Assembly (NCBI GenBank): GCA_011048515.1
Contig: DSDW01000134.1
Coordinates: forward strand, 9,496-73,495
Direction: 5' to 3'
From: Campylobacterota bacterium
Lineage (GTDB): Bacteria > Campylobacterota > Campylobacteria > Campylobacterales > Sulfurovaceae
DNA: 64,000 bases
A program made the translations under genes and the position numbers. Under the pieces are notes generated by a model. It was not told the DNA's origin. It did no database searches and saw nothing but the letters and a program-made list of their open reading frames with translations. Below are positions 55,578 through 60,287 of this stretch, one piece after another (the stretch's first letter is position 1; the number at the start of each line of letters is the position of its first letter).

Positions 55578-56058
55578 TGTCCTCTATCGCCTGTGTATAG
55601 GCTGCATAGTAGTGGCTTCCGTCAGTGAAACTGTTGACTGTCAGTTTTGAAAAGGCTTCAAGGTATTCCCAGAAATTATCTTTGAGCTCCTGAGGAATAT
55701 CAGTTTCCCGCAGGGCCGTCTCCATGCATCCCAGCCACTCGTAGCGGCTTTTTTCATAGATGGAAAACTCATCATGCAGGCGGATCATATACTCAGTGAG
55801 ATCCTGCCCCTCCGACTCGGTATGCACCTTCGGTCCGCCGCAGAGCTGGATAAAAAAGCGTGCATTTTTCTCTTTGACCTTTGCGAACTCCTCTTCATCC
55901 TGGGGGAAGAAGTTGGCGATGGCACTCTCATAGATCTCATCGTAAAAACGGTACATCAGGTCTTGCATCCCTTCATACCCCAATGCCTCGTAAAATGCCG
56001 GGTCAGGCATCCTGAAGTGTACGTTCTTGCCTTTGACTACAGGGGTTACATCATACAT
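55573..56058 (-). CDS. truncated hemoglobin (group II-like)
   Basis: YEALG...RFY, FFIQLCGGP, RLH proximal His, WLGCMETAL. Confidence 0.82.
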   Translation of the reverse strand: MYDVTPVVKGKNVHFRMPDPAFYEALGYEGMQDLMYRFYDEIYESAIANFFPQDEEEFAKVKEKNARFFIQLCGGPKVHTESEGQDLTEYMIRLHDEFSIYEKSRYEWLGCMETALRETDIPQELKDNFWEYLEAFSKLTVNSFTDGSHYYAAYTQAIEDK

Positions 56059-56116
56059 TATATTGCTCCGAATGTGAAAAATATCAGTTATTGTATCAAA
56101 TTATCATAAATATAAA

Positions 56117-56992
56117 TTACTCATCACAGTAGCGTTTGAGCAGGTAGCTGTAAGACTCGATCCGTCTGTCACGGAGGAAGGGCCAGATATCGCGCACTGC
56201 TTTGGTGCGTGCATGGTCGATCTCTCCGTAGAGTATCTCCTCATTTTCGCTTCCGGCCTGTACGAGTATCTCTCCCTGGGCTCCGGCGATAAAGGAGTTG
56301 CCCCAGAAACGTATCCCCTCCATCACACCTGAGCTGTCAGCTTCAAACCCTACGCGGTTGCATGATATGACCGGGATCCCGTTGGCAATGGCATGGGAGC
56401 GCTGGATCGTGATCCAGCTCTCCAGCTGTCTTCTTTTTTCCTCTTCGCTGTCTGCATCGAACCAACCGATCGCTGTCGGGTAGATAAGTATCTCTGCACC
56501 GCGAAGGGTCATCGCTCTGGCAGCTTCCGGGTACCACTGATCCCAGCAGACAAGTACTCCCAGCCTCCCTACGGATGTGTCAATCGGCTCAAAACCAAGA
56601 TCTCCCGGGGTAAAGTAGAACTTCTCGTAAAACCCCGGGTCATCGGGGATATGCATCTTTCGATATTTCCCTGCGACCGTACCATCTTTTTCAAAGACCA
56701 CCGCAGTGTTGTGGTAGAGTCCTGCCGTACGCCTCTCAAAAAGTGACGTGACAAGCACGACCGCATTCTCTCTGGCAACCTCCGCCCAGTAAGCGACATC
56801 CTCCTCAAAATTTGCCGCATAATCGAAAAATCCTGTATCTTCGCTTTGGCAGAAGTATTCACTCTGGTGAAGTTCCTGGAGCACGATCAGTTCGGCTCCG
56901 TTCTTGGCAGCCTCTTGTATTTTAGAGGTAGTAGCGTTGACGGTATCGGTTTTATTTCCGTAAAATTTTTGTTGAATCAGTGCTGTTTTCAT
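56117..56992 (-). CDS. aguB: N-carbamoylputrescine amidase (carbon-nitrogen hydrolase)
   Basis: LQELH, YRKMHIPDDPGFYEKFYF, VCWDQWYPE. Confidence 0.9.
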   Translation of the reverse strand: MKTALIQQKFYGNKTDTVNATTSKIQEAAKNGAELIVLQELHQSEYFCQSEDTGFFDYAANFEEDVAYWAEVARENAVVLVTSLFERRTAGLYHNTAVVFEKDGTVAGKYRKMHIPDDPGFYEKFYFTPGDLGFEPIDTSVGRLGVLVCWDQWYPEAARAMTLRGAEILIYPTAIGWFDADSEEEKRRQLESWITIQRSHAIANGIPVISCNRVGFEADSSGVMEGIRFWGNSFIAGAQGEILVQAGSENEEILYGEIDHARTKAVRDIWPFLRDRRIESYSYLLKRYCDE

Positions 56993-57057
56993 AAGGGTGA
57001 TTTTAGCATAATTTTATTTCTTATTAAACCTTATTTTTATATAGTTATGGGCAAGGG

Positions 57058-57134
57058 AATGTTAAAAGCCAAACATATCGTGAGGTGTGGACGGAAAGCT
57101 ATGGGTCTCAGGGAAGATCGCCAGGCTGCACATT
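57058..57134 (+). ncRNA. c-di-GMP-I (GEMM) riboswitch aptamer (cis-regulatory)
   Basis: P1 AATGT/ACATT; CCAAAC-ATATC-GTGA-GGTGT-GGACGGAAAGC (GNRA loop, conserved GAC and AAA); P3 GGTCT/AGATC then GCCAGGCTGC; C21-G46 covariation relative to Vc2. Confidence 0.85.
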
Positions 57135-57192
57135 TTTAGCTTCATATACTTTTACTTTTCCTGCAGATATGCCGATATAAAGGATAGAATGA

Positions 57193-57828
57193 ATGAAAAG
57201 TACAACAATTGCAGCAGTATCTGCGGCGATTTTTCTCTTTACCGGATGCGGTACCAGCAAGGTCGCACATGCCAGCATAGTAAATAACGGAAAGGGTTAT
57301 GCTTCAGACAAAAGCACACAAAGTGTGAAGAGAAAGCGAGCAGTCTCTCACTCGGCTTTTATCACCAAAAGCCAGCAAAAAGAGTTCCTGCAGCATATAA
57401 ATAAAGTCCGCTCCGAGAGAAGATCATGCGGAAAATACGGCCGTATGGGGCCTGTAGAGCCATTGGCATGGAGTGATAAACTCTATGAGGCTGCCTATCT
57501 CCACAGCTATGATATGGCCAAGAGCAGCCACTTCGGGCATGACGGATCAGGCAGCAGAAATGACAGATGCTCTGTCGATATGGGGCTGAGACGCGGAAGC
57601 AAGCTTAAAGAGCGTATGAGCTATACGGATTATCGATGGAGGGCGATCGGTGAAAATATTGCGGCAGGGCAACCATCAACGCATGCGGCAATGCAAGCCT
57701 GGCTTCGCAGTGATGAACACTGTAAAAACCTCATGAGCGATCATTTTACGGAAGTAGGAATGGCTTACCACCCATCAAATGATCACTATCAAAACTACTG
57801 GGCTCAAAACTTTGGCCGGAGTCTGTAA
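57193..57828 (+). CDS. CAP (SCP) domain lipoprotein
   Basis: Lipobox FTGC; AAYLHSYDM, HFGHDG, GENIAAG, WLRSDEHCKNLM, YWAQNFG. Confidence 0.88.
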   Translation: MKSTTIAAVSAAIFLFTGCGTSKVAHASIVNNGKGYASDKSTQSVKRKRAVSHSAFITKSQQKEFLQHINKVRSERRSCGKYGRMGPVEPLAWSDKLYEAAYLHSYDMAKSSHFGHDGSGSRNDRCSVDMGLRRGSKLKERMSYTDYRWRAIGENIAAGQPSTHAAMQAWLRSDEHCKNLMSDHFTEVGMAYHPSNDHYQNYWAQNFGRSL

Positions 57829-57843
57829 GTTTAGAGGTGCCCT

Positions 57844-58857
57844 TTAGTAAGCGACCTGCATCGTAGAACAGTGCAGGCTGCCTCCCTGTTCGATCAGTTT
57901 GAGACAGTTGACCGGGATGATCTCTCTGCCAGGGAATTGTGCGGCAAACACCTCATGGGCAGTTTTGTCCTGCGGAGTACCGTATGTCGGGTAGACCAGC
58001 GCATCGTTGGTGATCAGAAAGTTCGCATAGGTGGCAGGCAGCCGGTCACCCTCTTCGCTGTAAACGGCGTCACACATCGGAAGTGCTACAAGGTTATAGG
58101 GCTTTCCGTCAACCGTTTTGAACGTCTGTAGCTGCTCCTCCATCTTTTTGAGTGCCTCATAGTGTTCATCGCTCTGATCATCGCACTTGACGTACATGAT
58201 CGTATCCCGGTTGACAAAACGCGCCAGGGTATCGATGTGCGAATCGGTATCATCCCCTGCCAGATACCCGTGATCAAGCCACAATACCCTTGTCGCCCCA
58301 AGTGTCTCCCGGAGTTTCGCCTCGACCGCCTCTTTGCTCAATCCGCCGTTTCTGTTGGGGTTGCAGAGACACTCGGATGTCGTGAGGATCGTCCCCTCTC
58401 CGTCACTCTCCAGCGAACCTCCCTCAAGGACGAAGTCGATCGTCTCCATCGGGGTGGTCCCCATATAGCCCGTTTTGTGAAGTATCGTATTGACACGATT
58501 GTCAAGAGTGGCGTCAAATTTACCTCCCCATCCGTCAAAAGTGAAGTCAAGTAATTTGAGTTCATTACCTTCTTTGATAGAAATATATCCGTAGTCACGT
58601 ATCCAGGTATCATTTGTCGGGATTTCGATAAATGTCATATTGCGGGTAGAGCAGAACAACCCGGATATCCTCTCTTTGTTATCGCAGACGATATATACCG
58701 GCTCGGCATAGGCGATCGCCTGAGCGATACGGATAAACGGGCTGAGCGCCTCCTCTAAACTCTTTTCATTTTCTGGATCATGCCAGTCTGTCTCCTTGTG
58801 GGGAAACGACAAGAGCACAAGCCTTTGTTTTTCCCATTCTGCAACCATACGTTTCAT
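57844..58857 (-). CDS. aguA: agmatine deiminase
   Basis: MVAEWE, NDTWIRDYG, LEGGSLESDG, DDTDSHID, PATYANF, GGSLHCSTMQ. Confidence 0.93.
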   Translation of the reverse strand: MKRMVAEWEKQRLVLLSFPHKETDWHDPENEKSLEEALSPFIRIAQAIAYAEPVYIVCDNKERISGLFCSTRNMTFIEIPTNDTWIRDYGYISIKEGNELKLLDFTFDGWGGKFDATLDNRVNTILHKTGYMGTTPMETIDFVLEGGSLESDGEGTILTTSECLCNPNRNGGLSKEAVEAKLRETLGATRVLWLDHGYLAGDDTDSHIDTLARFVNRDTIMYVKCDDQSDEHYEALKKMEEQLQTFKTVDGKPYNLVALPMCDAVYSEEGDRLPATYANFLITNDALVYPTYGTPQDKTAHEVFAAQFPGREIIPVNCLKLIEQGGSLHCSTMQVAY

Positions 58858-58994
58858 TAGTCTAAATTACACCTTTCATTTTTTTTCCCGTTTTTGGAGT
58901 CTTTGATAGCTTTTTTCAGCGCTTTGAGAAGAGCGAAAAGGATCATCACGGTCAAGAATATACCGATAATCTCCAGCATTGTCAGCCAATCCAT
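58857..58994 (-). CDS. 45-aa single-TM small protein coupled to aguA
   Basis: Hand-translated [45 protein letters not shown]; stop overlaps the aguA start (TAATG); below the track's cutoff. Confidence 0.6.
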
Positions 58995-59047
58995 TTTTTG
59001 CCTTTATTGACGGGATGAATTTTGTCTATTTGGGGTATAATTCCTTC

Positions 59048-60074: not shown

Positions 60075-60287
60075 TTACTGGTGGATGATCCTGATGATAT
60101 CATTGTTCTCATCCACTATTTGAAAGATATGTTTGTCTCCGGCACTTTGATGGTAGACCGCTTCGCTGTTTTGTGCATCGTCGAGTAGGACACGGATCGT
60201 CGCATTCCGGTCCTCTATCTCTACATCAAAAGAGATGATCTCTACGGCTGAAACCACTACACCATCTTCGACTTTTTTTAAAATCAT
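60075..60287 (-). CDS. small hypothetical protein
   Basis: 70 aa ORF with AAGGAAG RBS filling the gap. Confidence 0.5.
   Translation of the reverse strand: MILKKVEDGVVVSAVEIISFDVEIEDRNATIRVLLDDAQNSEAVYHQSAGDKHIFQIVDENNDIIRIIHQ

Follow-up and report, generated by a model that had tools for sequence, protein, structure and literature searches.

A conserved c-di-GMP class I riboswitch ahead of a CAP-domain lipoprotein gene in Sulfurovum-like Campylobacterota, and its predicted translational output

Described class I systems and the element in the window

Among described c-di-GMP class I (GEMM-I) riboswitches, Vc2 of Vibrio cholerae (Rfam family RF01051) lies upstream of tfoY and folds into a three-helix junction with an AAA-G junction segment, a CAAAC bulge and a GAAA tetraloop of the GNRA type. 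The roles of its nucleotides G20, A47 and C92 have been described, and C92 forms a Watson-Crick pair with one guanine of the ligand (PMC5888326, PMC6140456). Position 20 bears on specificity: G favours c-di-GMP, while A leads to cGAMP recognition or dual specificity, and wild-type Vc2 binds cGAMP with a Kd of ~10 uM (PMC6140456). Vc2 has no terminator, and it is reported (Inuzuka 2018, as cited in PMC11218506) to repress translation by masking of the ribosome-binding site on ligand binding. The GEMM-Ib riboswitches of Geobacter, such as Gs1761 (PDB 4YAZ), adopt the same fold and sense 3',3'-cGAMP. Their discriminator is A, and in Gs1761 this A14 is followed by C15 of a C-G pair that is flipped relative to Vc2 (PMC7288161).

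The element described here lies in a 64 kb stretch of DNA (the window; G+C = 47.7%) from a Sulfurovum-like host of the Campylobacterota. An Rfam covariance-model scan of the window, run at the gathering threshold with only the best family per clan displayed, gave a single riboswitch match at 57059-57134 on the plus strand (60.2 bits, E = 1.1e-11). The match covers the full model length and was reproduced when the sub-window was rescanned. A GEMM (c-di-GMP-I) riboswitch had originally been predicted at this site, and the match, which is above the gathering threshold and conserved in orthologues, bears this out, with RF03167 rather than RF01051 as the best model. All features lie where that prediction had placed them, including AGGA at 57181-57184, the ATG at 57193 and the open reading frame at 57193-57828.

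The full-length model alignment contains the three-way junction of P1 and two hairpins, the A-rich junction and the CAAAC internal loop (Table 1). As in Vc2, a GNRA tetraloop, the AAA-G junction and counterparts of G20, A47 and C92 are present. These ligand-contacting nucleotides, G57068 (the last unpaired G ahead of the first inner helix), A57095 and C57129, are invariant in the relatives. The first hairpin is closed below by C57069-G57094 and C57070-G57093. In contrast to Vc2, the element has a C-G pair next to G20 where Vc2 has G-C, and its tetraloop is GUGA instead of GAAA. In type 1 aptamers of this family, the second hairpin provides a receptor for the GNRA tetraloop; here that hairpin is short, lacks the receptor-like CUAAgg...cuAuG segment of the RF01051 consensus and contains no evident receptor. 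The host and the target, a CAP lipoprotein, also differ from those of Vc2.

Nine orthologous leaders, the window included, share a mean column identity of 80%, with the junction and the ligand-contacting nucleotides invariant and hairpin loop length variable. Across these leaders, 99% of the cells of 23 aptamer pairs are paired, as opposed to 28-38% when the 3' partners were slid as a control. Two pairs, both in the first hairpin, show compensatory changes (U-A to C-G and C-G to U-A). With RF03167, eight orthologous loci, which represent seven distinct sequences, reach 60.5-67.3 bits. The single-sequence minimum free energy (MFE) of the aptamer is not better than that of shuffles (z = -0.09), so the evidence for the aptamer lies in the covariance model and conservation and not in thermodynamics. 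By that comparative evidence, the element is confirmed as a genuine and conserved member of the c-di-GMP class I riboswitch family.

The same pattern of conservation, which tracks the helices and invariant junctions, makes it barely credible that the element is a non-functional relic, or a leader peptide read from an AUG at 57060, instead of an RNA switch. What speaks for a peptide is that the AAGGGAAUG motif opens a 26-codon reading frame through the aptamer (in the frame of 56846-57139). The spacing between the SD-like motif and this AUG is, however, 0-1 nt. The upstream reading frame was rejected as a candidate because neither its length nor its frame is conserved: it spans 26 codons in the window, 18 in L081 and 17 in L083, with a 1 nt indel.

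Table 1. Coordinates of the riboswitch, its leader and the neighbouring genes in the window
Feature	Position	Strand	Basis
Promoter-like block TTAAAC..TATTTTTATATAGT for the riboswitch-CAP transcript	57024..57047	+	Conserved in 9/9 orthologous leaders
Anti-aptamer helix, 5' strand (5' flank, P1 5' strand, junction including G20)	57054..57068	+	Pairs with 57149-57162
c-di-GMP class I (GEMM-I) aptamer	57058..57134	+	Rfam match 57059-57134 and conserved pairing
P1 5' strand AAUGU	57058..57062	+	Pairs with ACAUU 57130-57134; 5 bp, invariant in 9/9 leaders
G equivalent to Vc2 G20, c-di-GMP versus cGAMP discriminator	57068	+	Model position 10; invariant across relatives
First hairpin, GUGA (GNRA) tetraloop 57080-57083	57074..57089	+	Model alignment; pairing in nine leaders
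A equivalent to Vc2 A47	57095	+	Window GGAAAGC; A at model position 37
Second hairpin, short, no evident tetraloop receptor	57097..57127	+	Model alignment; loop length and sequence vary among relatives
C equivalent to Vc2 C92	57129	+	Model position 75; invariant
Switch / anti-Shine-Dalgarno segment CUUUUACUUUUCCU	57149..57162	+	Nearly invariant in nine leaders, flanks variable
Translation initiation region (SD AAGGA 57180-57184, ATG 57193-57195)	57180..57195	+	Sequence
CAP/SCP (YkwD-like) domain lipoprotein, 211 aa	57193..57828	+	PF00188
aguB-like N-carbamoylputrescine amidase, divergent from the riboswitch	56117..56992	-	PF00795 (CN_hydrolase), E = 5e-60
aguA-like agmatine deiminase, convergent with the CAP gene	57844..58857	-	PF04371 (PAD_porph), E = 5e-117

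Family assignment, predicted ligand and distribution

The top score of RF03167 (c-di-GMP-I-GGC) in the window is marginal, at 60.2 bits against a cut-off of 59. One lower-scoring match of the same clan at the gathering level, presumably to RF01051 (cut-off 35), was suppressed. RF03167 is also the top model for most relatives, with scores of 59.1-67.3 bits for these and the window, and it has a comparably compact second hairpin; for locus L089, plain RF01051 gives the best match (57.7 bits, cut-off 35). The consensus lines of the two models, ...GACGCAAAgC... in RF01051 and ...GACGCGAAgC... in RF03167, differ in the change of A47 to G. Weinberg et al. reportedly defined the GGC variant in 2017; to judge from the two consensus lines, G for A47 is the middle letter of 'GGC'. 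We know of no ligand that has been determined for the GGC class. Position 37, where the RF03167 consensus has its defining G, is occupied by A in the window, in both copies of the Sulfurovaceae locus L007 and in L081-L089. Membership of the GGC variant was rejected on account of this A47 (57095), despite the top score of RF03167. The higher score of the GGC model probably reflects the compactness of the second hairpin and its missing receptor-like segment.

The sole core departure from the RF01051 consensus is the C-G pair in place of G-C beside G20. Because the Geobacter cGAMP riboswitch has this flipped pair in common with the window, the earlier description of a Geobacter-like CCAAAC...GACGGAAAGC core was a fair one. 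The A at position 20 that defines GEMM-Ib is absent, and in its place stands G57068, a base that disfavours cGAMP (PMC6140456). It is very unlikely that the element is a specificity variant for another ligand, be it that of the GGC class or, as in Geobacter GEMM-Ib, 3',3'-cGAMP. The top-scoring Rfam model and the flipped pair beside position 20 would both fit such a variant, but A rather than G is found at position 47 in every copy, G rather than A is found at position 20, and L089 scores highest with the parent model. Moreover, the advantage of the GGC model probably stems, to judge from the consensus lines, from the short, receptor-less second hairpin. With G20 and C92 canonical and A instead of G at position 47, the element is therefore taken to be an ordinary c-di-GMP-I aptamer whose predicted ligand is c-di-GMP. 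The original prediction had arrived at the same ligand by applying the G20/A20 rule to the G at 57068. That base does align with Vc2 G20 and is invariant in relatives; in company with A57095 and C57129, it makes c-di-GMP the most likely signal sensed by the leader. The case illustrates an annotation pitfall in which a small model for the GGC variant narrowly beats its parent on aptamers with canonical binding-site nucleotides, such that automated pipelines would label them as specificity variants.

Aptamers of this flipped-pair flavour are abundant in metagenomes, with at least 120 stretches recovered in a pattern scan. Among the matches listed, similar aptamers are frequent in AT-rich metagenome contigs, some of them from the sample series of the Sulfurovum-like loci. 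The genes downstream, again among the matches listed, are typical GEMM targets, including those for small PAS proteins, surface proteins (PEP-CTERM and others), NlpC/P60-LysM, GGDEF, HD-type and outer-membrane proteins. CAP-domain proteins occur there twice more (L139 and L161). In five metagenome contigs (L093, L110, L117, L128 and L135), four of them with 33-37% G+C, the gene that follows this type of aptamer encodes a stand-alone PAS-domain protein of about 137-159 aa, which may be a recurrent target of c-di-GMP riboswitches in the source organisms of these contigs.

Free-living members of the Campylobacterota, Sulfurovum among them, carry genes for many GGDEF/EAL proteins (PMC2628731). A search of the 64 kb window for GGDEF/EAL motifs gave no match. 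The original prediction knew of no such riboswitch characterised in Campylobacterota, and no paper on c-di-GMP riboswitches in this phylum was found in the literature searched; the c-di-GMP-I element is uncharacterised there rather than absent. What the window holds is an ordinary kind of riboswitch in a Sulfurovum-like host of a little-studied phylum. With it, chemolithotrophic Campylobacterota gain a c-di-GMP riboswitch whose expression platform is conserved and open to analysis; c-di-GMP enzymes are abundant in this phylum, but the literature searched gave no characterised RNA effector of c-di-GMP for it. The source organism dominates one 'freshwater metagenome' run (X1), in which word depth over 56000-59000 is about 24,000, and it is also found in sediment and hot-spring metagenomes.

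The leader and its predicted switching mechanism

Transcription of the leader may start near 57052, from a putative promoter in the block at 57024-57047, which was missed by a sigma-70 consensus scan. At its other end, AGGA lies 8 nt ahead of the ATG, and AAAGGAA is conserved ahead of the ATG in relatives. No plus-strand terminator-like site was found between the aptamer and the ATG (57135-57192), in keeping with the earlier statement that no intrinsic terminator follows the aptamer. A terminator-like hairpin with a U-run at 57209-57226, within the signal-peptide codons, was rejected because it is not conserved, which makes transcription termination unlikely.

Between the aptamer and the SD, the segment ACUUUU(A/G)CUUUUCCU (57148-57162 in the window) is invariant in eight of nine leaders. 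Its complementarities suggest that the leader, ~57052-57192, is a c-di-GMP-I riboswitch that acts on translation initiation through three mutually exclusive pairings and is OFF with ligand, a model held here with moderate confidence. In the ligand-free state, the CU-rich segment 57149-57162 would pair with 57054-57068, a stretch made up of 5' flank, P1 5' strand and junction. This pairing would break the binding pocket and leave the SD and AUG open, so that the CAP gene would be ON. When c-di-GMP is bound, P1 (57058-62 with 57130-34) and the junction would be locked in the aptamer. The CU-rich segment, once released, would then mask AGGA and the start-codon region, and the CAP gene would be OFF.

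Several results bear on the first of these pairings. The duplex of 57149-57162 with the 5' aptamer has an energy of -9.4 to -10.1 kcal/mol in eight of nine leaders (-7.6 in L089), compared with -4.3 to -6.1 kcal/mol (SD about 2) for shuffled segments in the same eight leaders, a difference of ~2 SD. An unguided RNAalifold consensus fold recovers the helix between 57055-57068 and 57149-57161, with the two hairpins enclosed and the start region unpaired. The helix excludes P1 and the binding pocket. Over the nine leaders, 96.6% of its cells are paired, and a single change, A-U to G-C in L089, is compensatory; the covariation is not significant by a shuffle control (127/500), and the helix was originally derived from the same leader sequences that were used to score it. 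Analogous anti-aptamer helices of different sequence are found in the distant CAP-linked leaders L139 and L007b. In an RNAalifold analysis of this second CAP-linked clade (two copies of L007, L139 and L161), the two hairpins alone were recovered, the platform being too divergent to align.

Complementarity of the segment to the start region is present as well. UUUUCCU of the switch segment is complementary to the SD, which reads AGGAAAA in most relatives and AGGAUAG in the window, where the match is weak (4 bp, a mismatch and 3 bp). In addition, aptamer-enforced folds show ACUUUUC of the segment paired to GAAAAGU in codons 1-3. Pairing of the segment with the start region is not better than that of composition-matched shuffles, as any start region rich in purines will pair with a strand rich in U and C. 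The ensembles of the aptamer and anti-aptamer states differ by about 0.3-5 kcal/mol, and the unconstrained MFE structures of the leaders often include the aptamer fold already. Predicted accessibility of the start region rises in the anti-aptamer state in the window (0.43 to 0.91), L081, L084 and L085 and is much the same in both states in four to five of the nine leaders; the GGA that was picked automatically in L086 and L087 lies too close to the AUG. Taken with the open start in the RNAalifold fold, the conserved complementarities of the switch segment lead us to infer a translational OFF switch of the Vc2 type. The original prediction had also suggested that control may be translational, and the missing terminator and the complementarity of the CU-rich segment to the SD/start region are consistent with this.

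The direction of the switch could in principle be reversed, with c-di-GMP raising CAP translation by freeing a U-rich standby or enhancer site or by opening the start region. Such ON-type c-di-GMP-I switches are known, e.g., Vc1/gbpA (PMC11218506), and both the shuffle result for the start region and the leaders without an accessibility difference would suit one. This direction is nevertheless quite unlikely, as the RNAalifold consensus and the anti-aptamer-constrained folds leave the SD and AUG accessible in the absence of ligand, and no sequence was found to mask the SD specifically in the ligand-free state.

Also unlikely is an output that is mainly non-translational, through Rho-dependent termination, RNase access or mRNA stability. 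The leader is C/U-rich, no intrinsic terminator follows either the aptamer or the CAP stop codon (within 57829-57950), and Pursley (2019), as cited in PMC11218506, reports an effect of Vc2 on RNA stability. The CAP gene and aguA converge without a terminator, so that antisense read-through into aguA may be affected as well. The complementarity of the switch segment to the SD/start region is, however, more simply explained by occlusion of the ribosome-binding site, as in the translational OFF model.

The lipoprotein gene and the aguA/aguB neighbourhood

Described bacterial CAP/SCP proteins (YkwD; PDB 4ifa) share with the protein encoded in the window a CAP domain with GENIA and H..KNL motifs and predicted export. 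In the window protein, the domain occupies residues 67-207 (PF00188, 63.6 bits against a gathering threshold of 21.1, E = 4e-17), and the only PDB sequence match is the SCP-domain protein 4ifa (E = 1e-8). Unlike these relatives, it has the form of a lipoprotein, and its NCBIfam matches to TIGR02909 YkwD and DalA are both below cut-off. Lipoproteins were judged by motif, i.e., a signal peptide ending in a lipobox [LVI][ASTVI][GAS]C. The lipobox L-F-T-G-C is encoded at 57235-57249 with Cys19 at 57247-57249, where the window reads MKSTTIAAVSAAIFLFTG followed by C, and both the motif ([L/I][F/L][T/S]GC) and the signal peptide are conserved in nine orthologues. The CAP-domain lipoprotein of the original prediction is upheld by the PF00188 match and the conserved LFTGC lipobox, and the protein is predicted to be exported. 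The riboswitch nominates it as a c-di-GMP-regulated envelope protein.

Two short metatranscriptome contigs are identical to the window at 57300-57491 and 57498-57677, both inside the CAP reading frame; RNA-seq support for the leader or a transcription start was not found. These contigs, which may contain DNA and come from a study where the source organism is very abundant, weakly suggest that the CAP gene is transcribed in situ.

The gene had been described as inserted between co-oriented aguA and aguB on the opposite strand, and the flanking minus-strand reading frames do match both families. The best NCBIfam match of the aguB-like frame (TIGR03381, 287.6 bits) is below its cut-off of 410, as are those of the aguA-like frame (NF010070 and TIGR03380) below theirs. 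The aguA product shares 81% identity with its counterpart in a Sulfurimonas MAG and 74-78% with those in several Sulfurovum/Sulfurovaceae MAGs. CAP homologues of 46-88% identity were traced to eight further distinct metagenomic loci (L081-L089, where L081 and L082 are identical contigs of one locus). All have the order aguB(-), about 200 nt, CAP(+), aguA(-), with the aptamer nearly invariant.

Other relatives show that 'inserted between' was the right description, since three arrangements are found among them: aguA and aguB adjacent, a CAP gene without aptamer, and two tandem CAP genes, each with an aptamer. For example, aguA and aguB are directly adjacent in many relatives (L001-3, 5, 6, 8, 9, 13, 14, 21 and 67). 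Six Sulfurovaceae MAGs (L004, L012, L015, L016, L018 and L022) possess an opposite-strand CAP-lipoprotein gene at the same site, of 36-44% identity and with a short, AT-rich intergenic region of 36-209 nt, in which no aptamer was found by Rfam even at E <= 0.01. Nor was an aptamer found with a more distant CAP homologue in another genomic context. The six loci indicate that the riboswitch was gained or lost independently of the gene, and the CAP gene at the aguA/aguB site is older and more widespread than the riboswitch.

The third arrangement is seen in L007 (Sulfurovaceae MAG CAVORT010000004.1, 7003-8623), where the promoter-aptamer-CAP cassette is tandemly duplicated between aguA and aguB. 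Each CAP gene has its own aptamer (59.3 and 59.1 bits), and the two promoters are nearly identical, of the form TTGAC...TATGATATA(C/A)T.

On the aguB side, a conserved extended -10 element, TGCTAAAAT, at 57000-57008 on the minus strand ends 7 nt ahead of the aguB ATG (56992-56990), with no Shine-Dalgarno sequence found between the two. This proximity suggests that, in CAP-containing loci, aguB may be transcribed from a promoter of its own as a leaderless or near-leaderless mRNA. L004, which has no riboswitch, shows the same arrangement of TGATAAAAT, 6 nt and ATG.

On the aguA side, the CAP stop codon (57826-57828) and that of aguA (57844-57846, minus strand) are 15 nt apart. No terminator-like site was found between them, and antisense overlap of the two transcripts is probable. 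The 3' end of aguA contains an inverted repeat, CCTGCA-N11-TGCAGG (region 57829-57875). The fixed position of the CAP cassette, which converges on aguA and separates it from aguB, might itself be functional, with translational repression causing Rho polarity and altered antisense read-through into aguA, and c-di-GMP thereby coupled to agmatine-to-putrescine (polyamine) synthesis in Sulfurovaceae; this is a highly speculative and improbable proposal. If it were true, the CAP lipoprotein itself would be a c-di-GMP-controlled envelope factor.

Two small minus-strand reading frames were also observed. A hydrophobic 45 aa frame at 58857-58994 has a stop codon that overlaps the aguA start; L081, L083 and L084 each have a gene call of 40-45 aa at this place. 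The second, a 70 aa frame at 60075-60287 with no Pfam match, occupies the same position, after alr, in those three loci.
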